Positions 4,877 to 59,019 of a stretch of 64,000 bases of DNA are shown here, one piece after another; positions within the stretch are counted from its first letter, which is position 1; every line of letters starts with the position of its first letter. Position numbers and translations under genes: made by a program. The notes beneath the pieces were generated by a model. It saw only the letters and a program-made list of their open reading frames with translations. It was not told where the DNA came from and did no database searches. Source of the stretch: Methanocellales archaeon (lineage in GTDB: Archaea; Halobacteriota; JAWCLZ01); contig JAWCMA010000001.1 in NCBI GenBank assembly GCA_038850285.1, positions 27,880 to 91,879 on the forward strand. Direction: 5' to 3'.

Positions 4877-4936
4877 AAAAATAAAAATAAAAATAAAAAT
4901 AAAAATAAAAATAAAAATAAAAATAAAAATAAAATA
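4877..4936. repeat. (AAAAAT)~10 hexanucleotide microsatellite; it reads (ATTTTT)n on the transcribed minus strand, so it is a probable oligo-T terminator
   Basis: T occurs every 6 nt at 4882, 4888, ... 4930. The run begins immediately after the hdrA-mvhD stop at 4939 and lies upstream of the nadM start at 4743. Confidence 0.9.
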
Positions 4937-17375: not shown

Positions 17376-17426
17376 TGTAATATATCTATTCCTGTGTTAT
17401 TATGGAATATCTATTCCTGTGTTATT

Positions 17427-42509: not shown

Positions 42510-42583
42510 GCTGCTAATTATAAGCTAATTATTAAGCTAAATTAAGCTAATTATTAAGCTAATTTATTAAATATTAAATACCC
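42507..42583. repeat. About 5 imperfect tandem copies of AAGCTAATTATT
   Basis: Read directly: taagctgctaattat aagctaattatt aagctaaatt aagctaattatt aagctaatttatt. Confidence 0.8.
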
Positions 42584-46053: not shown

Positions 46054-47309
46054 GCTTGAGGGATTTTTTAGAGAAATTAAGGCTAGAGGGACTGCTCCTC
46101 AACATCGAGGAAAGGGTTTCACCTGAATTTGAAGCGCCTAAAATCGCTAGAGAGCACTCTAAACCGATTTTCTTCAAAGATGTGGCTGGGAAAAAAGCAG
46201 TGATGAATGTAATTTCAAGTCGGGAAATACTAGCACTTGCTCTAGGAGTAAGGAAAGAGGAAATAGTGAGATATCTCGCCGGGGTAAAGCCTGAGGGTGA
46301 AATAAAAATTGTGGAAGAGATGCCTTTTCTGGAGAGGCAATTCAAAGCTGATTTATCTAAGCTCCCTATAATGCGGCATTATCGAGAGGATGCAGGTAAA
46401 TATATAACCGCTGGAGTTGTGATTTCGAGACTTGGCGAGGAATACAATGCCTCGGTGCATCGCATGCTTGTGCTTGATAAGAGAACCCTTGCGGTTAGAT
46501 TAGTGCCACCTAGGCATTGCTATCTAATGCATAAAAAAGCCGCGGAGCAACGTAGGGAGCTACCGGTTGGAGTTGCAATTGGAGTGGACCCTCTTTTCTT
46601 GCTTGCAGCATGCACTAGAGTGCCTGAGTGCAGGGAATTTCAATATACTAGTGCACTATCTGGCAAACCACTTGAGCTTTATGAGCTTGAGAATGGAGTT
46701 CAAGTGCCAGATGCTGAAATAGTATTAGAAGGCTATGTAGACCCTGAGGCTAGAGCTAGAGAGGGGCCATTTGTGGATATAACTGGTACTTTAGATATAG
46801 TCAGAGAGGAACCAGTGATAAAGCTTAATAGAATATACATGCGTAGAGATGCAATCTATCAAGGTATACTCCCAGGTGGAAGTGAGCATAAACTATTGAT
46901 GGGCGTGCCATATGAACCTAAAATTTATAAAACAGTTGGCGAGGTTGCTCGAGTGAGAAATGTATTACTCACTGAGGGGGGGTGCTGTTATTTCCACGCG
47001 GTGGTGCAAATAGAAAAGCAAACTGAGGGCGATGGCAAAAATGCAATTCTAGCTACCTTCACTGCTCATCCGAGTTTGAAGCACGTTGTAGTGGTTGATG
47101 ATGACATCGATATTTATAATCAAGTGGAAGTGGAATATGCAATTGCCACGCGCGTGCGGGGAGATAGAGATATATTGATAATACCCCGCGCTAGGGGTTC
47201 ATCTTTAGATCCAGCTATTGCAGAGGATGGAACTACTACCAAAGTAGGGATAGATGCCACGAAGCCTTTGATTGGAAGAGAGAAGTTCAAGCGAGTTGAA
47301 ATGGAATAG
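46041..47309 (+). CDS. UbiD-family prFMN-dependent decarboxylase (possibly trans-anhydromevalonate-5-phosphate decarboxylase of the archaeal mevalonate pathway)
   Basis: 422 aa with a UbiD-like fold and coupling to ubiX. Confidence 0.7.
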   Translation: MGRMSLRDFLEKLRLEGLLLNIEERVSPEFEAPKIAREHSKPIFFKDVAGKKAVMNVISSREILALALGVRKEEIVRYLAGVKPEGEIKIVEEMPFLERQFKADLSKLPIMRHYREDAGKYITAGVVISRLGEEYNASVHRMLVLDKRTLAVRLVPPRHCYLMHKKAAEQRRELPVGVAIGVDPLFLLAACTRVPECREFQYTSALSGKPLELYELENGVQVPDAEIVLEGYVDPEARAREGPFVDITGTLDIVREEPVIKLNRIYMRRDAIYQGILPGGSEHKLLMGVPYEPKIYKTVGEVARVRNVLLTEGGCCYFHAVVQIEKQTEGDGKNAILATFTAHPSLKHVVVVDDDIDIYNQVEVEYAIATRVRGDRDILIIPRARGSSLDPAIAEDGTTTKVGIDATKPLIGREKFKRVEME

Positions 47310-47374
47310 CTTTAGGTTTTCAATAGCTAGTTTTTAATAGCTCTAGGTTTTTCAATAGCTAGTTTTTAATAGCT
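47310..47374. repeat. Tandem duplication (2 × ~32 bp) CTAGGTTTTTCAATAGCTAGTTTTTAATAGCT spanning the trm1 3' end
   Basis: Copy 2 encodes the Trm1 C-terminus (..LKTSY*). Copy 1 is a downstream ghost copy that includes the stop codon. Confidence 0.85.
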
Positions 47375-48437
47375 CTAGGATTTCCTTCAAATTTGCATTG
47401 GTTTTGAAGCCAATGCTTGAGAAATGCGTTCTACTTGCTTTAAAACCACACTTCATAAGTTTCTCTATAACCTCTTCTATTTTAAGGGGTGCTATTTTGA
47501 GTATTTTGCATAACTTATGATGGTTATAATAAGAGAAAACTTGGATTTCTTCCCTGCATAGTGAGAGTAATTTCCTAGCTTGCTCTTTCTTCCCGAGCTC
47601 TTTTTTCTCAACTTCCTTGAGAGTTTTGCTTAAGAATCTTTTATCCCCTAGCTCGCCCAACCAGAGGATACCTCCAGCTTTCAAAATCCCCCCACAGTTT
47701 GGGCACTTAGCTGGTAATTGTGGAATGATTCCCTTGATAGATGCTCTATATAGGCATGTGAAGCAGTGCACGAAATAGCCAAGTTTTTCTAATGTTAAAT
47801 CTGCCTTCGCTGCTCCCTTCTCTATCTTTATGTAAACTCTATAGTAATGCTGCTCTGCATATGAAAGCAGAGGCTTTGCTGCTTTATCATATTTCGCGAG
47901 CTCACGCGCGATTTTACCTATCAATATTCGCACTCCAACTTCATTGTAGTACTCAGTTTTAAGTGGAAATGCTTGATAATTGCGAATCCCTGCTTTGAGA
48001 TGTGAACCGCATAGTGGGGCTGTATCTGTTGCAGTAATGCAGAGCAGTTTTCTAGCTGATCTACAAGCTGCATCGAGAAATGGCACTGGAGATCCAAAGG
48101 GGTCGATATCAACGATGTCGAAGTGCTCCTTAATGAGGAGTATGTTTGCATTCATATTGCTTGGCCAGGCTAGGTCTTCTAAGCGATTGAGAGCTATATT
48201 TTGCTTAATTGCCTCGTAAGCGCTGGTATCTATATCATTCACAGTGCATTTGAGTCCAACTTCCTTAGCAATTCTAATTCCGCGAATCCCACTTGCAGCT
48301 AAAGCATCGAGAAATGTCATACCTAGGTTGGAGAAGGCTGCTATGCATGCTATGCTTATATCTCTATTTAGCTCCATTTTTGGGTTGTAGAAAACTTTAC
48401 TTGGTTTAATCACCACTTGACCTTCTTTAATCAGCAT
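47352..48437 (-). CDS. trm1: tRNA (guanine26-N2)-dimethyltransferase Trm1
   Basis: SAM-binding LDALAASGIRGIR and a C-terminal Zn motif CFTCLY...CPNCGG. Confidence 0.85.
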   Translation of the reverse strand: MLIKEGQVVIKPSKVFYNPKMELNRDISIACIAAFSNLGMTFLDALAASGIRGIRIAKEVGLKCTVNDIDTSAYEAIKQNIALNRLEDLAWPSNMNANILLIKEHFDIVDIDPFGSPVPFLDAACRSARKLLCITATDTAPLCGSHLKAGIRNYQAFPLKTEYYNEVGVRILIGKIARELAKYDKAAKPLLSYAEQHYYRVYIKIEKGAAKADLTLEKLGYFVHCFTCLYRASIKGIIPQLPAKCPNCGGILKAGGILWLGELGDKRFLSKTLKEVEKKELGKKEQARKLLSLCREEIQVFSYYNHHKLCKILKIAPLKIEEVIEKLMKCGFKASRTHFSSIGFKTNANLKEILELLKTSY

Positions 48438-52160: not shown

Positions 52161-53783
52161 CTATAGCTTTTTAACTACCCTCTCTATAACTTCACTTGGG
52201 CTGATTGCTTCAAGTGTTCTAGCTGTTATATCCTCTAGCATGACCTCAATTGCCAATTTAAGGGCTTGCTCATCCACATATAAAATTCGATGTGCATTTG
52301 TCTCTCTACTTCTAGCTGAGAAATAAAAGGGAAGCGTCAGGGCAGAGGCAAGCTGAAGGCATTTATATATAGCGCGTGGAGAAGCGTGCACTAATTGATC
52401 TTCTTCCACGAATTCCTTTACGAAGATTTTAAGGCTCAAGGTAACTCTCTTGATTTGATCCTCTAGGAACTGTATCTTAGCTGGCTTGTATTTCCACATC
52501 CCAGTGTTTATGGCATAGATCAAGGTTACGTGGTCTCTAATTAGCTTTGGAGTTATCTCTTCATATCTACCTACACCTAAAGCGTGTCTCTCAATTGACT
52601 CCACTATAGAGAGGAATCTATCCTTGGTCATGCGGTGCAAGCGGCAGAAGCAGCGGTCTTCAATTGCACGGAAATTTGGATCAGGCACGGTTAATCTATA
52701 GCCCCTTCTCTCTACTTTTACATTGTAATTTGCATTCAAGAAGGAGGTGAAAACATATGGTCCAATTGTTTCATGCGCTGATTCATATTTCAATGGCTTT
52801 TGCTCCATCGCGAGTTTGAGTCTCTCCACCATTCCACGTTCATGGAAGAACCACTCATTGAACTCCGGGACTAAGAAGACCATTTTCTTGCCTTCGTAGT
52901 ACTGCCCCATTTGGAGAAACATATATGGAGTTATGCCCCCGCAGTATCTATATCTCCCAGGTATGCCATGTGGCTCGAGCTGGAGTTTTTCATTGCCCAT
53001 CACAAAATCTATACTGGAATAAGTTTTTCCAGTTCCAATATCCCCGAAGAAAGCAAGGTGAAAGCCTGTACTTGTGAGGCGCTCGCCATTTGGCTTGAGT
53101 ACTTCCACATCTGCAATTCCAAATAACTGGCTCCATGAGAGGAGTACGTCTATAGCTGCCACCCCACCATATTCCTCGCAGTATCTATAAATCGAGGTCA
53201 AGTCAATTTGCTTCGCGAATTCAATAACTTTCTCTTCATCAATTTCCTTGAGATAATTCTTCAAGCACGAGTCCATTTTTTTGACCAATATCTGCTCGCT
53301 GGGCTTGGTCTCTTCTTTTATAGTGGTCTTGGTTTTTCTTCTTATGTACTCCATGAGGTGCTTTGCATTTGGCACTATGTATCGAGCGAAGTGATGTTTA
53401 TAGCTCTCCACCGGGCGGATTTGAATTTGATAGGATTCTTCTTTTTCATGGAGAGCAATGAAGAAGTAATGCTCATAGGTATGCAGCAAGCTTGAAATTG
53501 CATCTTTAATTAACTTTTCATCCGCATAAGTTTTGTCAGCTTCAATCACAATTCCATCAGGTGCTATTTCTATTACATCTCGAATTATCTCTCTCCCAAT
53601 TGCCATTCTAGCATTTCTCACTAGTTCTTCCCATTCTTCTCTACCGAAGAGGAAGGTGCCAGCTTCATCGTTTATGCTACGAGTCGCTAGTTCCTCTGCA
53701 GTAAAAATGCCTATGCTATTGAGATCTTTCATTCGCTTTCTACCTATTCCAGAGATTTCAAGCAGCTCCATTTCGAGGATCAC
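52161..53783 (-). CDS. Uncharacterised protein: an N-terminal helix-hairpin-helix motif plus a central P-loop NTPase domain
   Basis: 540 aa. The N-terminus ELLEISGIGRKRMKDLNSIGIFTAEELA is HhH and RadA-N-like. The Walker A FFGDIGTGKTYS sits at about residue 250. The gene lies co-directionally downstream of the DNA ligase. Confidence 0.5.
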   Translation of the reverse strand: MILEMELLEISGIGRKRMKDLNSIGIFTAEELATRSINDEAGTFLFGREEWEELVRNARMAIGREIIRDVIEIAPDGIVIEADKTYADEKLIKDAISSLLHTYEHYFFIALHEKEESYQIQIRPVESYKHHFARYIVPNAKHLMEYIRRKTKTTIKEETKPSEQILVKKMDSCLKNYLKEIDEEKVIEFAKQIDLTSIYRYCEEYGGVAAIDVLLSWSQLFGIADVEVLKPNGERLTSTGFHLAFFGDIGTGKTYSSIDFVMGNEKLQLEPHGIPGRYRYCGGITPYMFLQMGQYYEGKKMVFLVPEFNEWFFHERGMVERLKLAMEQKPLKYESAHETIGPYVFTSFLNANYNVKVERRGYRLTVPDPNFRAIEDRCFCRLHRMTKDRFLSIVESIERHALGVGRYEEITPKLIRDHVTLIYAINTGMWKYKPAKIQFLEDQIKRVTLSLKIFVKEFVEEDQLVHASPRAIYKCLQLASALTLPFYFSARSRETNAHRILYVDEQALKLAIEVMLEDITARTLEAISPSEVIERVVKKL

Positions 53784-53991
53784 TATAGATTGTTTTTTGA
53801 AGATAAAAACTTTTACATAGGGGAAAAAAGAAATAAAGAAATTGGACTATGGGTTTGTGTTTAGATTGTAGAATTAAACTTGAAGCTAAACTAGCTGAGG
53901 AGGATATATTTTTTGAGTTTTTAGAGGCTTTTCAAGAGAAGCCTAAGCACGTTGGAGAGATCTGCGAATGCTGTGGAAGGCAATTCTTTGA

Positions 53992-55716
53992 TTAGCCTCT
54001 GGCTCTCTGCTGTTCATACATTTCGATGATCTCCTTCACTGTATTTGCATCTCCAGCGCTTTTATCCTGCCTTATGAATCCCACCGCGCGGGGGAAGCGC
54101 AGAGCGTAACCTATTTCTTTTTCAGTTCTCCCGCAAGTGTGAAGGGGGGAGCGGGTTATTTCATCAGCCATAACTGTTATGACGTACTTCGGTTCAACCC
54201 ATACATCTGGGATGATGAGGGAATCTACTCTAGCGTGGCGATGTGGAATTGCAATTTCATCAAGCATCCCCTTGAGTTTTACCCAGTTTTCCTCGCTGAA
54301 TCCAGATCCAACTTTTGCAATTGTCTTGAAGGTATCGCTTTCTTCATCGTAAACTGAGCATAAGATAGCTCCAATTCCAAGTTTTGCTCTAAAGCCCTTT
54401 CCCTTGAAATAGCCCACTATACAGACATCTATAGTATCAGCTAGTTCGCCTTTGTAGCTTCTCTTGAGCTTTATCCAGTTAAAATTTCGAGCACCTGCAG
54501 AATATGGAGCATCTAATCTCTTTGCAACAACTCCCTCCAGGCCTTTTTCCACGAATTCCTCGAAATAGTTTTTAATCTCCGTGGGATCGCCTGTGTAGAT
54601 CACCTTTGCAACATCTATTGGTCCATCTGATGTGATTATTTGCTCCATTTTCTCGCGGCGCTCAATATATGGCTTTTGAGTATAATCCACTCCATCCACA
54701 AATAGTAGTTCGAATGCAAAGAGCTTCAAGGGATATTCCTTGGCTAGTTCCTCCACGCCGTGTTTGCGCTTGCGTGTTATTGTAACTTGAAATGGAAAGA
54801 GCTCTCCTGTTTCTTCATTATATGCAAGGGCTTCTCCTTCTATAATTGCTTGCTTCGCTTTAATTTGCCTCTTAGCTGCTTCCACGATCTCTGGGAACAT
54901 CGCGGTGGTGCGCTCGAGATTTCTCGAGAAAATTTCCACCTTATCTCCATCTTTATGTATCTGGCATCTAAAGCCATCGTATTTAGGTTCAATCGCAGCT
55001 TTACCTATCTTTTGAACTATATCCTCGGATGAGGGGAGGCGCTCGCAAAGTGCCATTCTAATTGGGGAGAAAACCTTTATTTTGAATTCCCTTATTCCCT
55101 TTTCTCCCTTCTCAAAGAGGGTTTTAGCTACTAGTCCTAGGTCTGAGCATAGGTTATATGCTCGCTCAAGTTCAGGTCGAAATTTTCTAGTTCCAGCTTT
55201 AGCTTGTGCTAGAGCGTCTAATATGGTTGGATCTCCTATTCCAAGTCTTAGCCTTCCTGCTACGAATCTAGCGATATATTTTGATTCAATGGGTGAAGCA
55301 TTGGAAAATAAATTAGCTAGAATTGTTATCTTTTTCTCAACGCTTCCTTCACCAGTTGTTAGAGCCACTTTTAAAAGTCGGTCGTAAACCTCGCTTACCT
55401 CCAACTCTGAGCCTTTGCTTCTGGAAAATTTCTCAGCTACGATTCCCAAGTCACCTGCATTCTTGAATTCCTCCTCAACCCTCTGGAGAGTTACTCCAGC
55501 TGATTGAGAAATCGCTCGAATAAGCAATTTCTCGCTAACCCCCATTTCAACTCCGCGAAATGGAGGTAGAATTTGCTCTTGACATAGATATATTATCTTC
55601 TCAATTTCATTGCTATCCGCTTTCTTGAAAAGCTCAGCTAGAATATTGAACATCTCTAGCCTCTTTGTAGTTGCCTCGAGTTTTTCAAAGTAACTTGCTA
55701 GCTCTGAAAATTTCAT
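53992..55716 (-). CDS. lig: ATP-dependent DNA ligase (replicative Lig1-type)
   Basis: Adenylation motif I EPKYDGFRCQIH, plus DNA-binding and OB domains; 574 aa. Confidence 0.9.
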   Translation of the reverse strand: MKFSELASYFEKLEATTKRLEMFNILAELFKKADSNEIEKIIYLCQEQILPPFRGVEMGVSEKLLIRAISQSAGVTLQRVEEEFKNAGDLGIVAEKFSRSKGSELEVSEVYDRLLKVALTTGEGSVEKKITILANLFSNASPIESKYIARFVAGRLRLGIGDPTILDALAQAKAGTRKFRPELERAYNLCSDLGLVAKTLFEKGEKGIREFKIKVFSPIRMALCERLPSSEDIVQKIGKAAIEPKYDGFRCQIHKDGDKVEIFSRNLERTTAMFPEIVEAAKRQIKAKQAIIEGEALAYNEETGELFPFQVTITRKRKHGVEELAKEYPLKLFAFELLFVDGVDYTQKPYIERREKMEQIITSDGPIDVAKVIYTGDPTEIKNYFEEFVEKGLEGVVAKRLDAPYSAGARNFNWIKLKRSYKGELADTIDVCIVGYFKGKGFRAKLGIGAILCSVYDEESDTFKTIAKVGSGFSEENWVKLKGMLDEIAIPHRHARVDSLIIPDVWVEPKYVITVMADEITRSPLHTCGRTEKEIGYALRFPRAVGFIRQDKSAGDANTVKEIIEMYEQQRARG

Positions 55717-55778
55717 TCACACCACATGGGATATCTTTTATAATCACGTCTAATAATTCTAATGGTGTAATCACAAGT

Positions 55779-56957
55779 ATGGCAAGCATCGAAGACCGAG
55801 TCCTTCTACTACTTTCAATCAAAGAGCCTGGGAAGAAAATCGATTTTGAGCATATAAGGGAAAAGATAGTTAGAGATGAGAAATCAAGGGATAAATCAAG
55901 GGATAAATCAAGGGATAAATCAAGGGATAGAGATACGATAGAGGATACAATAGAGAATGCAGCAGGTGGTTTAGTTAATGAATTGAAGAAGTGCCTTGAA
56001 ACTCTAGCGAGGCAGGGGTTAATTAAGGAAGAAAGAGGCAGCTATGCTATAACTGAGAAAGGGGAAAGGAGAATTCTAGAGCGGTTAAAGCAAGTGGGCG
56101 GGGATTTGAATCTATCCTATCGCTTGGTCTTGAAGGCCAAGAAATACTATCCAGTTATTGGAGAAGCAATGCTTCCATTCCTCAGGGATAGAGCTGTTAG
56201 TGTGATCAAAGTTTTCAGCGATGAAGTTGAGCCGTTGAGTAAAATAAAGCCACTCTTCGTTAGATATGCTCGCTATAAACCTATTCCAGTTTTCATAGAG
56301 ATCAAAGACCTTGAGACTTTATTGAGATACGTTGACCAACACGCCATTGATTTCATACCATATGTTCACAGACTTCAAGCTAGAGAGCCTGACTGGTTCA
56401 TCCTTGATCTCGACGCGGGTGAAGAACTTCAAAAGCACCCTATGAGTTTTGAGCTGATTAAAAATGTGGCTCAAAAGGCAGTTGAGGTACTAGAGGAAAA
56501 TGAAATCGAGCCTTGCATAAAATTTAGCGGCTCGAGAGGGATTCAAATCTGGGCAAAGTTTGATAATAGCAAGCTTCAAAGCGAGGGGGATTTATTTGCA
56601 GTTTATAGAAGACTTGCTGTGACTGTGCAGCAAAAAACTGAGCAAAAACTTCAGAAGGAGTTTAAAAACTTGATCAACCCCAACAAGCCAATTACCACTT
56701 CCCAAGTTGCTAAGAAAGAAGAAAGAGCTGATCAAATTTTGATAGACTGGAGCTCTATGAAGCCAAATGGAGATGTTAGAGCGCCCTTCAGCATGCACTA
56801 TAAAACTGCTTTAATCTCAACTCCTATACCTAAATCACATCTCCTTGAATTTGAAATTCAAGAAGCTCAGCCTGAGTATGTGATGAGAAATCTAGCTAAA
56901 TTAACCTCCGCCTTTGAACTTAGAGCTTCTAATCCGACTAAGCTGCTGAGGAATTGA
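55779..56957 (+). CDS. LigD-type polymerase/primase domain (AEP superfamily PolDom) with an N-terminal wHTH-like region and a KSRD×4 low-complexity linker
   Basis: The three PolDom motifs are read directly: WFILDLDAGEE (DxD), IKFSGSRGIQIWAKF (SGxRG) and ILIDWSSMKPNGDVRAPFSMH (IDWS...APFS). The ATG at 55779 was chosen; the ORF track's upstream extension overlaps the ligase start. Confidence 0.8.
   Translation: MASIEDRVLLLLSIKEPGKKIDFEHIREKIVRDEKSRDKSRDKSRDKSRDRDTIEDTIENAAGGLVNELKKCLETLARQGLIKEERGSYAITEKGERRILERLKQVGGDLNLSYRLVLKAKKYYPVIGEAMLPFLRDRAVSVIKVFSDEVEPLSKIKPLFVRYARYKPIPVFIEIKDLETLLRYVDQHAIDFIPYVHRLQAREPDWFILDLDAGEELQKHPMSFELIKNVAQKAVEVLEENEIEPCIKFSGSRGIQIWAKFDNSKLQSEGDLFAVYRRLAVTVQQKTEQKLQKEFKNLINPNKPITTSQVAKKEERADQILIDWSSMKPNGDVRAPFSMHYKTALISTPIPKSHLLEFEIQEAQPEYVMRNLAKLTSAFELRASNPTKLLRN
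55881..55928. repeat. 4 × 12-bp in-frame tandem repeat AAATCAAGGGAT encoding (KSRD)4
   Basis: Read directly within the PolDom gene. Confidence 0.9.
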
Positions 56958-56958
56958 A

Positions 56959-58197
56959 ATGAGGATATATAGCTTAAGCAGTAGCAATAGATGTGTCTTC
57001 TGCAAGGGATCTAAATTCCTCTGCGGCAAAGAGCGATGTCCCATTCTTGTGAAGCTATATGCGCAGCAGCAAACTAAGCCATTGATCGATTCCCTGAGTT
57101 TAGAGGGCTCCTCACCCCCTGGGGTTTTCATTGGTAGAATTGGCTATCCCTATGTTTCAATAGGTCCTTTAGTTCCACCTATCCAAGGTGATACTTTTCT
57201 ATTAGATACCCCTGAGCTCTGGGTGGGCAAGAGCATAGATGAAATAGTGAATTTCAGATTCCAGCTCGTTAGAGGGAAATATAGAGTGAATGTGAGAAAC
57301 GTTGAGGGTGAAAGGATAGTTGAGGCTACTCGAGAACTCGCTATGGCTTTAAACCCAGCTGATGTGGAGGTTGAGTTTCATAAAAAACCCCGGGTAGAAA
57401 TAGCGCTTGATGATGAAGTGCAGCCTCACGGCCCGAGTGCACCTTTGAAGAAGATTGATGTAAATTCAATTAAAATAGACAGGAGAATTGAAAAAGCATA
57501 TAGCGATACTGATTTAAAGGCAAGTGAAGCGGTTTTGAATCTCTATAGAAGTGGAGTGTTGATATCCAAAATACAGCGTGCCTTCAGCGCAGGCGTATTA
57601 GGGGAGAAAAAAGCTAGGCGATTTGTGCCAACTAGGTGGAGCATCACCGCGGTTGATAGCATTATCTCAAGTACATTGATGGAAAGAGTTAAAGCAAATC
57701 CCTTGATAAATGAATTCCAAATTTATGAATCAATCTCACTTGATAATAGATTCATCGTGATCCTCATGCCATTTTCTTGGAGCTATGAATTAATTGAAGC
57801 TTGGTATCCAAATACAATTTGGAACCCAACTGGTAGAGAAACTGTGATATTCTCTGACCACGAGGGCTTCTCAGGGAGAACCACTTACGCGAAAATTGGA
57901 GGATGCTATTACGCCGCGAGACTAGCTGTTTGCGAATATCTTGAAAAAATAGGGAGGCAAGCTAGAGTATTAATTCTTCGGGAAGCGCATCCTGGCTATA
58001 TAATGCCAGTTGGCGTGTGGAATGTGCGGGAGAGTGTAAGAAATGCTCTTCGAAGCGCACCTCATAGGTTTAGCAGTTTGAGGGAGGTATTCAATTATAT
58101 CACAGCCAAGCTCTGCATACCTATTCAAAAGTGGCTGCTTCATAGTACGCTACTCAAGCAGCTGCTCCATCAAAGGACTCTTGAGGATTATACTTAG
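56959..58197 (+). CDS. nreA: NreA-like archaeal DNA-repair protein (DUF650/DUF651 architecture)
   Basis: 412 aa with an N-terminal Cys cluster CVFCKGSKFLCGKERCP. It lies in a ligase neighbourhood, as nreA typically does. Confidence 0.45.
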   Translation: MRIYSLSSSNRCVFCKGSKFLCGKERCPILVKLYAQQQTKPLIDSLSLEGSSPPGVFIGRIGYPYVSIGPLVPPIQGDTFLLDTPELWVGKSIDEIVNFRFQLVRGKYRVNVRNVEGERIVEATRELAMALNPADVEVEFHKKPRVEIALDDEVQPHGPSAPLKKIDVNSIKIDRRIEKAYSDTDLKASEAVLNLYRSGVLISKIQRAFSAGVLGEKKARRFVPTRWSITAVDSIISSTLMERVKANPLINEFQIYESISLDNRFIVILMPFSWSYELIEAWYPNTIWNPTGRETVIFSDHEGFSGRTTYAKIGGCYYAARLAVCEYLEKIGRQARVLILREAHPGYIMPVGVWNVRESVRNALRSAPHRFSSLREVFNYITAKLCIPIQKWLLHSTLLKQLLHQRTLEDYT

Positions 58198-58206
58198 AGG
58201 GGAAAT

Positions 58207-59019
58207 ATGCAAGTGAGAATTAGGGAGATAAAATGTAAAACTGCACTCTCTCCCTCTCTTTTACCTGGCTATGACTATGCTTTAAATCCATATAGAGGCT
58301 GCGAGCATGCTTGCATATACTGCTATTCCCCCTCAGTGCTTAGATGCAGGGAAAAATGGGGGACATTTGTAGAGCCAAAGGTGAATATAGCTCGCGTACT
58401 ATCTCGAGAGCTAAGGGATAAGCCAAAGGGAGTTGTTGGAATAAGCAGTGTCACTGATCCCTATCAGCCTCTGGAGAGGAAATATGAGCTGACAAGGAGA
58501 TGCTTGGAATTACTTTTGAAGTATAATTTTCCCATCTCAATTCAAACCAAATCAGCATTAGTAATGCGAGACCTAGATTTGATCAAGCAGTTTTCTAATA
58601 AAGACGTTGGGTTAACAATCACCACCATTGAAGATGAATTGCGGAGGAAATATGAACCCATTGCGAGTAGCGTGAAAGAGCGATTGCTTGCTTTGAGAAA
58701 GATAGCTGAGTGTGGAATCACCAGCTGGGTCTTTATTGGTCCCATAATGCCATTTATAAGCGATAGAAATGGCTCTCTTGAAGAGCTGCTTAGAGCAATT
58801 GCAGATTCAGGGGTGAGCTACATCTTAATCGATAAATTGAGAATGAAGCCAGGGATCTGGGATAATATTGAAAAATTCCTCGTTGATTATGATGCAACAT
58901 TGATTCCTAGTTACAAGGAGATATTATTCAAGCGGGATGATAGTTACTTTATTAATGTGAGGCGTAGAGTAATGGAGCTATGCAAGCAGCTAGGTTTGAA
59001 GTGCGAGTCTTGCTTTTAG
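58207..59019 (+). CDS. Radical SAM protein of the spore-photoproduct-lyase / DNA-photolyase-like family (COG1533-like)
   Basis: CEHACIYC CxxxCxxC motif near the N-terminus; 270 aa; sits 9 nt after nreA. Confidence 0.6.
   Translation: MQVRIREIKCKTALSPSLLPGYDYALNPYRGCEHACIYCYSPSVLRCREKWGTFVEPKVNIARVLSRELRDKPKGVVGISSVTDPYQPLERKYELTRRCLELLLKYNFPISIQTKSALVMRDLDLIKQFSNKDVGLTITTIEDELRRKYEPIASSVKERLLALRKIAECGITSWVFIGPIMPFISDRNGSLEELLRAIADSGVSYILIDKLRMKPGIWDNIEKFLVDYDATLIPSYKEILFKRDDSYFINVRRRVMELCKQLGLKCESCF

Follow-up and report, generated by a model that had tools for sequence, protein, structure and literature searches.

A gene predicted to encode a protein with an N-terminal winged helix-turn-helix (wHTH) domain and a LigD-type primase-polymerase domain (PolDom) was analysed in a stretch of 64,000 nucleotides of the Methanocellales archaeon assembly GCA_038850285.1 (contig JAWCMA010000001.1, positions 27,880 to 91,879 of the forward strand; hereafter the window). 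It would head a likely operon, followed by the genes of an NreB-like protein and an SplB (spore-photoproduct-lyase)-like radical SAM protein, and is orientated divergently from a gene encoding an ATP-dependent DNA ligase (Table 1). A perfect tandem repeat of a 12-nt unit is located within the wHTH-encoding part. We consider it probable, at roughly three in four, that the gene product is an ordinary member of a wHTH-PolDom family with a role in DNA repair, and that the repeat is a recent, likely neutral slippage expansion in the turn of its wHTH domain.

Table 1. Positions of the features at the wHTH-PolDom locus, counted from the first nucleotide of the window.
Feature	Position	Strand	Remarks
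Three-domain ATP-dependent DNA ligase	53992..55716	-	DNA_ligase_A_N, DNA_ligase_A_M and DNA_ligase_A_C; TIGR00574 (1e-140); 62 bp from the PolDom gene, divergent
TATA-box-like element TTTTATAA	55736..55743	unassigned (.)	within the 62 bp separating the divergent genes; about 39 nt upstream of the ATG
GGTG, candidate ribosome-binding site	55764..55767		12-15 nt upstream of the ATG
wHTH-PolDom protein gene	55779..56957	+	single open reading frame (ORF), 392 aa plus stop codon, ATG start
wHTH domain, residues 1-110	55779..56108	+	helix H1 4-13, H2 from 23, H3 to 78, wing strands 82-85 and 88-91, H4 93-109
Lineage-specific H2-H3 turn insertion, residues 34-64, EKSRDKSRDKSRDKSRDRDTIEDTIENAAGG	55878..55970	+	turn length and AlphaFold2 (AF2) models
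Perfect tandem repeat AAATCAAGGGAT x4	55881..55928	+	encodes (KSRD)4 = K35-D50, in frame
Older, decayed 12-nt tandem duplication	55926..55955	+	encodes RDTIEDTIEN; Tandem Repeats Finder (TRF) period 12, 2.6 copies, 89% matches
LigD-type primase-polymerase (archaeo-eukaryotic primase, AEP) domain, residues 122-373	56142..56897	+	PF21686, 82.2 bits (cut-off 27.4), E 5.7e-23
AEP motif I, D210-L-D212, metal-binding aspartates (ILDLDAG)	56406..56414	+	invariant in 95 sequences
Gln256 at the AEP motif II His position	56544..56546	+	SGSRGIQIW vs SGSKGLHLY; profile alignment to 2fao and 2iru
AEP motif III aspartate D323 (LIDWS)	56745..56747	+	invariant; aligns to VFVDWS of M. tuberculosis LigD-Pol
Nre-family gene, NreB-like by context	56959..58197	+	Nre_N 3e-103, Nre_C 2e-42; 1 nt after the PolDom stop codon
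Radical SAM gene, SplB-like	58207..59019	+	Radical_SAM and SPL matches; 9 nt after the Nre stop codon

The fused wHTH-PolDom protein

Homologous proteins span 99-100% of the wHTH-PolDom protein, and its full-length AF2 model, for which an alignment of 95 homologues served as input, reached a predicted local distance difference test score (pLDDT) of 94.5 and a predicted template modelling score (pTM) of 0.91. More than 200 homologues have the start MA(S/T)xEDR in common and show the same fusion of both domains in one protein. The only in-frame start codons further upstream are TTG 55671 and TTG 55695, both located within the divergent ligase gene, which starts with the ATG at 55716 on the minus strand. 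Based on the starts of the homologues, the promoter-like and ribosome-binding-site-like elements upstream and the location of both TTG codons inside the ligase gene, the ATG at 55779 was assigned as start codon. A start at TTG 55671 was rejected since it overlaps the ligase gene and since the resulting extension is seen in no homologue. The assignment of the N-terminus to a separate ORF was likewise rejected because the frame is continuous and the fusion is found family-wide. Judged by the general architecture of archaeal promoters, TTTTATAA presumably represents a promoter element. The intergenic region of 62 bp (55717..55778) contains a single A/T-rich element, CTTTTATAATC, which is TATA-like on both strands and could be a promoter element shared by the ligase gene and the PolDom operon.

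The isolated N-terminus matches the HTH_45 profile with 26.7 bits (cut-off 25.5), as do 23 of 31 homologous N-termini, and the domain follows the H1-S1-H2-T-H3-wing topology. In a comparison of the domain profile with the PDB only wHTH proteins were matched (SSO2273, a PhiH1 repressor-like protein and RosR). Together with the PF21686 match these results bear out the original prediction of an N-terminal wHTH domain fused to PolDom. According to the pTM of the full-length model, the wHTH domain seems to be packed against PolDom in a fixed manner.

The domain differs from the PadR/RosR/MarR-type wHTH proteins covered by HTH_45 in being fused to an enzyme instead of forming a free-standing regulator. 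It furthermore differs in its conservation pattern and charge. The invariant polar residues among the 95 sequences (K15, H25, K29, R32 and D33) are located in H1 and H2, whereas the poorly conserved H3 has no invariant position, and the median net charge of the wHTH domain in the family is about -1 (pI about 5.8). The poor conservation of H3 and the near-neutral charge render a sequence-specific reading of DNA by the wHTH domain doubtful. Taking furthermore into account that a turn insertion of 21-28 residues is tolerated in this genome, these features would speak against a wHTH domain that reads sequences in the classical manner. They appear to favour a role in structure, partner binding, dimerisation or non-specific contacts with DNA.

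The alignment of motif I in the family profile places ILDLDAG opposite LVFDLDPG of the M. tuberculosis LigD-Pol and VLDLDP of the P. aeruginosa LigD-Pol, and the catalytic acidic triad is complete in the protein encoded in the window. The histidine of the SGxxG-H motif II is missing: its place is taken by Gln256, which is invariant in the 95 family members (SGSRGxQxW), whereas LigD-Pol has His at this position (SGSKGLHLY, SGGKGMHLL). A phmmer search of the PolDom part against the PDB sequences revealed no match, and the family profile was needed for the alignment. The NCBIfam model ligD_pol scored 69 bits compared to a cut-off of 214.7, and NHEJ_ligase_prk likewise remained far below its cut-off.

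At the level of the fold, Foldseek detected Prim-PolC, the LigD-Pol domains of P. aeruginosa and M. tuberculosis and the Pol of Methanocella paludicola with E values of 2e-11 to 1e-8. The best match was the Prim-PolC of Mycobacterium smegmatis (5op0, E 2e-11, about 300 aligned columns). This mycobacterial, LigC-associated AEP (5op0, 6sa0, 6sa1) also resembles the archaeal protein in its DxD...D motifs. However, the two share a sequence identity of only 18-19%, and Prim-PolC has His instead of Gln in motif II and lacks the N-terminal wHTH domain; moreover, the family described here is archaeal and known from sequences and models alone. The bacterial LigD-Pol of non-homologous end joining (NHEJ) and the NHEJ Pol of M. 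paludicola (2fao, 2iru, 5dmu) likewise belong to PF21686 and have the same fold. The conserved LNLSYRxVLxAKxYYP of the archaeal family is comparable to the ...DYY region of LigD-Pol, and the residues of the 5'-phosphate pocket presumably correspond. In the C-terminal tail (56934..56954) the motif S-D/N-P-x-x-L was noticed, P386 and L389 of which are conserved in at least 90%. The motif is no canonical PIP (PCNA-interacting protein) box and could act as a partner-docking peptide.

The architecture is shared by many other genes. The best 120 of 266 database matches are proteins of about 372-377 aa with a query coverage of at least 93% including the N-terminus. A search through the GTDB species, each represented by one genome, revealed 128 relatives in at least eight archaeal phyla or classes. 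The best 80 of these 128 originate from a Methanocellales-labelled metagenome-assembled genome (MAG), Hydrothermarchaeota, Methanomethylicota, Nitrososphaeria, Marsarchaeota, Bathyarchaeota, Conexivisphaerales, Hadarchaeota and the Asgard groups Njordarchaeota and Hodarchaeaceae, and most of them match the query residues 1-390. When the wHTH profile was compared with 1.84 billion cluster representatives, full-length N-terminal matches were restricted to proteins about 350-390 aa in length and to obvious fragments; the remaining matches cover only H3 and the wing in unrelated multi-wHTH proteins. This wHTH domain is hence dedicated to PolDom.

The wHTH-PolDom proteins thus constitute a widespread and apparently uncharacterised archaeal family. 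The assumption in the original prediction that a combination of wHTH and PolDom had not been described holds in so far as no paper describing this architecture was found in a literature search, which did not cover the AEP classification of Iyer et al. 2005. It does not hold in so far as the combination is the normal form of a large archaeal family and is auto-annotated in public databases. Some members are annotated by JGI as 'DNA primase/predicted transcriptional regulator', and precomputed HTH_45 and LigD_Prim-Pol assignments exist for P0036 and P0076.

The tandem repeat and its position in the wHTH fold

TRF detected the array at 55881..55929 with a period of 12, 4.1 copies, 100% matches, a score of 98 and the unit AAATCAAGGGAT. 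Both TRF and the ORF frame confirm the perfect fourfold in-frame repeat of 12 bp for (KSRD)4 that the original prediction had described. A pattern of two units occurs three times, overlapping, at this site only in the window, with no occurrence expected according to 100 dinucleotide shuffles. The adjoining RDTIEDTIEN duplication was found in none of the homologues compared.

Furthermore, several strong arrays were observed in intergenic regions of the window, namely a perfect (AAAAAT)x9.7 at 4877..4934, a fivefold 12-mer at 42513..42570 and a 32-mer in 2.5 copies at 47305..47384. According to the ORF map the arrays at 17382 and 43917 are situated at the ends or boundaries of genes, and among the high-scoring arrays of the window only the one at 55881 falls inside a conserved protein-coding gene. 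It resembles the coding mini- and microsatellites that arise by slipped-strand mispairing in its perfect head-to-tail units, the unit length being a multiple of three, its location in a surface loop and a copy number that differs between close relatives. It differs from them in that it is no frame-shifting contingency locus and is known from one genome only.

In the original prediction the repeat was regarded as a linker joining a wHTH domain of about 70 residues to a second basic helical region. The fold contradicts this assumption. The HTH_45 match comprises residues 68-106 at the profile positions 35-72, i.e. the recognition helix H3 and the wing, which follow C-terminally to the repeat. 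The segment preceding the repeat (RVLLLLSIKEPGKKIDFEHIREKIVRD) provides H1, a short strand and H2. In the homologues the two segments flanking the repeat are contiguous and form a standard wHTH domain of about 85 aa. Consistently, in the profile alignment to the wHTH structures 2x4h and 3b73 H2 ends with the invariant R32-D33, and the turn and H3 come next. Based on the HTH_45 match, the contiguous homologues and the profile alignments, (KSRD)4 is an insertion in the HTH turn and not a linker between modules, and its flanks are the two halves of one wHTH domain.

A model in which the wHTH domain and a separate basic helical DNA-binding region are spaced by a slippage-tuned (KSRD)n linker would agree with the repeat being real and in frame, with a copy number differing between relatives and with the helical nature of the flanking segments in the AF2 model. 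It is, however, extremely unlikely in view of the single wHTH fold.

The segment from D33 to the start of H3 comprises 31 aa in the protein of the window compared to 3-12 aa in 94 other proteins and 3-10 aa at 85 other genomic loci. No other stretch of the wHTH domain is as poorly conserved and as variable in length as the turn; conservation is near zero across it, and from D33 to Y89 no residue outside the wing region is invariant. In the full-length AF2 model H2 (23-42) and H3 (51-78) are prolonged into a helical hairpin with a pLDDT of 67-84 in the insert. By contrast, residues 39-57 are unstructured in a model of the domain only (pLDDT below 50). The conformation of the insert is uncertain since the two models disagree.

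The closest relative (L001; Logan SRR32459164) encodes a protein with 93% identity, the gene sharing a nucleotide identity of 91.9%. It contains one copy of GATAAATCAAGA (GAT AAA TCA AGA) where the window has four units of the GAT AAA TCA AGG type. The copy number differs between these two close relatives, with four copies versus one at 92% identity. The two genes differ at 16.7% of the third positions, and 62 of their 90 differences are located at third codon positions, indicating purifying selection on both genes. An array of 48 nt dating back to the split from L001 would be predicted to differ by about four substitutions. Its units have nevertheless stayed identical, and thus the expansion is younger than this split.

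Close relatives show the turn sequences RD-EKSKD-I, RD-EKARD-I and RD-EKDKSRYNKD-L, which identify the KSRD unit as native turn sequence. The adjacent decayed TIED/TIEN duplication implies that the same turn was expanded at least once earlier. An ancestral turn EKS[K/R]D with one GATAAATCAAGR unit would have been expanded in frame to (KSRD)4 through slippage during replication (or through unequal recombination) at a surface turn that is permissive, and the insertion would be tolerated as a flexible or helical charged protrusion from the HTH turn. As far as the sequences indicate, (KSRD)4 is probably a recent strain-specific slippage product, and the insertion, which shows no sign of selection, is probably selectively neutral.

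The insertion might instead be functional and selected, either as a charged helical arm stabilised by K/R-D salt bridges (i,i+3) that interacts with DNA or with a partner, for instance NreB, the ligase or PCNA, or as a contingency-type rheostat of variable length. Such a function would be in line with the helical hairpin of the full-length model, with the two rounds of duplication at one spot and with the location of the insert, since a canonical HTH approaches DNA at this site. On the other hand, the insert was detected in one genome among about 180 homologues examined, its perfectly identical units have left no time for selection, its net charge is zero (nine K and R versus nine D and E) and the domain-only model predicts it to be disordered. 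For the rheostat it has to be added that a 12-nt unit maintains the frame at any copy number and does not permit on/off phase variation. A selected function of the insertion therefore seems unlikely.

A sequencing or assembly artefact, with a true copy number other than four, for instance one, is very unlikely. The source genome is absent from the searched collections, leaving the assembly as the sole evidence of the array, and the closest relative has a single copy, as such an artefact would have it. Yet the array of 48 bp is shorter than an ordinary short read, and single reads would presumably span it together with both flanks. It is exactly in frame, and the adjoining diverged duplication is independent and cannot come from assembly. 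Comparable tandem 12-mers also occur naturally elsewhere.

Exact look-ups of the PolDom protein (392-aa and 428-aa versions) and of the adjacent Nre protein gave no match, and a degenerate 29-nt pattern of the left flank had no match in genome contigs and none in metagenome contigs. The two-unit repeat pattern had seven matches in metagenomes, namely in the JGI contigs L090-L096, which carry tandem arrays of 2-4 copies of the AAATCAAGGGAT 12-mer. All seven are unrelated loci; on account of their different flanks and missing PolDom homology they were rejected as relatives of this locus and regarded as coincidental. No match was obtained in a word-indexed search with the N-terminal 112 aa, in which the low-complexity KSRD words apparently swamped the candidates. 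After removal of the repeat the same type of search returned only four distant partial proteins and no close fragments.

Neighbouring genes and a putative role in DNA repair

The ligase gene on the minus strand and, at a distance of 62 bp, the wHTH-PolDom, NreB-like and SplB-like genes on the plus strand form a compact cluster (53992..59019). The radical SAM protein additionally matches the radical SAM PA0069/Rv2578c-type and photo_TT_lyase models. The order of the ligase gene and the PolDom, Nre and radical SAM genes is conserved in L008, L009 and L010, the PolDom proteins of which are 79-81% identical to that of the window. The PolDom-Nre arrangement is conserved in L001 as well as in L008-L010, the synteny of the cluster being kept in relatives with PolDom identities of 79-93%, and in Hydrothermarchaeum a divergent Nre gene adjoins the PolDom gene. 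The adjacency of NreB and SplB has been described before, its function being an acknowledged open question, and neither a PolDom nor a ligase partner is mentioned for this pair (PMC4929162). The Nre protein encoded in the window ends with QRTLEDYT (58174..58197), an imperfect PIP-like motif (QxxLxxY-), and has an N-terminal Cys4 cluster (CVFC...C...C); both features fit the published description of the NreB type.

The ligase gene also adjoins the PolDom gene in the distant loci L013, L058 and L076. An endonuclease V (EndoV) gene is found next to the PolDom gene in 13 loci of three phyla, comprising Hadarchaeota, a Hydrothermarchaeales MAG and a Hodarchaeaceae MAG (listed under L012, L074 and L077-L089). 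A gene encoding an endonuclease III (EndoIII)-like glycosylase of the HhH-GPD type is adjacent in ten Methanomethylicota loci (L004, L016-L020, L023, L025, L027 and L055). EndoV or HhH-GPD are thereby adjacent in 23 loci of other lineages, and a Mrr_cat-type nuclease adjoins in 15 loci, mostly of Nitrososphaeria. The EndoV, EndoIII-like and Mrr_cat neighbours suggest a link to excision repair. The existence of a universal partner gene was rejected since every neighbour family is confined to 17 or fewer of the 81 non-redundant loci. A recurrent Ku-like cluster of neighbours was not detected in the 81 loci, and neither a Ku gene (PF02735) nor a phosphoesterase gene was present in the Pfam-annotated neighbourhoods, which represent the surroundings of the gene and not whole genomes. 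The archaeal family thus differs from LigD-Pol and the NHEJ Pol in the additional wHTH domain, in the Gln of motif II and in the absence of Ku, phosphoesterase and LigD-type ligase genes from these annotated neighbourhoods.

The genetic link to an ATP-dependent ligase might be comparable to that of Prim-PolC, although it is restricted to six of 89 loci and the neighbouring archaeal ligase is a three-domain Lig1-type enzyme and not LigC. In mycobacteria Prim-PolC and LigC act in excision repair, in which Prim-PolC fills gaps (PMC5663958, PMC12019639). The adjacency of the archaeal gene to the EndoV and EndoIII-like genes of other lineages would parallel the gap filling in base excision repair outlined there. 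The wHTH-PolDom protein would fill short gaps or process ends in the course of DNA repair, and the neighbouring ligase would seal the nick. Considering the repair neighbours found lineage by lineage, the lack of a Ku context and the best fold match to Prim-PolC, a Prim-PolC-like gap filling or end processing appears more likely than classical Ku-dependent NHEJ.

Several points weigh against the interpretation as an ordinary family member with a repair role and a neutral turn expansion. The exchange of His for Gln in motif II may put a normal polymerase activity in question. The repair role is deduced from the gene neighbourhood, and the repair neighbours are specific to lineages: the ligase gene is adjacent in six and the Nre gene in seven of 89 loci, and most loci have no repair neighbour at all. 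The lineage-specific contexts weaken the inference of a gap-filling role. As to the expansion, its neutrality is argued from the position of the insert alone. An HTH turn normally faces the DNA, and an insertion at this site could alter binding. The confidence of AF2 in the insert is low to moderate, with one model predicting a helical hairpin and the other a disordered segment. Finally, the copy number and the correctness of the assembly are judged from the window assembly in comparison to L001, no conspecific sequence having been found.

The repeat itself is of minor significance and may mainly serve as a strain marker or as a natural insertion mutant. The wHTH-PolDom family matters more: at least eight archaeal lineages, among them Asgard archaea and relatives of ammonia oxidisers, encode a polymerase of the LigD/Prim-PolC type to which a winged helix is fused. 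Its contexts with NreB-SplB, ligase, EndoV and EndoIII-like genes provide testable hypotheses for archaeal excision and break repair and for the function of Nre. According to PMC12019639, very few archaea possess Ku/LigD, and a Ku-independent NHEJ has not been reported in archaea. We tentatively suggest, as a speculative and rather doubtful extension, that the wHTH-PolDom protein might be a Ku-independent archaeal repair polymerase. In this case the wHTH domain would replace the recruitment or end synapsis by Ku through PadR/RosR-like dimerisation or partner docking, and the protein would form a dedicated module for lesion processing, gap filling and sealing together with NreB, the SplB-like radical SAM protein and the ligase. 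Such a module would provide the first biochemical context for the enigmatic Nre proteins, and the KSRD array would represent a naturally occurring variant in the length of the wHTH turn and thereby a probe for the role of the domain.

Two further genes were noticed just beyond the ligase gene. A protein of 540 aa (52161..53783, minus strand) contains an N-terminal HHH_5 match (helix-hairpin-helix, HhH; E 1.7e-4) and a P-loop-like GDIGTGKT; a family assignment was obtained neither from Pfam nor from NCBIfam. The HhH protein is 91-93% conserved and syntenic in L008-L010 and may belong to the repair cluster. Between its gene and the ligase gene an ORF of 48 aa (53849..53995, plus strand) encodes two CxxC pairs resembling a zinc ribbon, and a gene of 48 aa is called at the corresponding place in L008 and L009.

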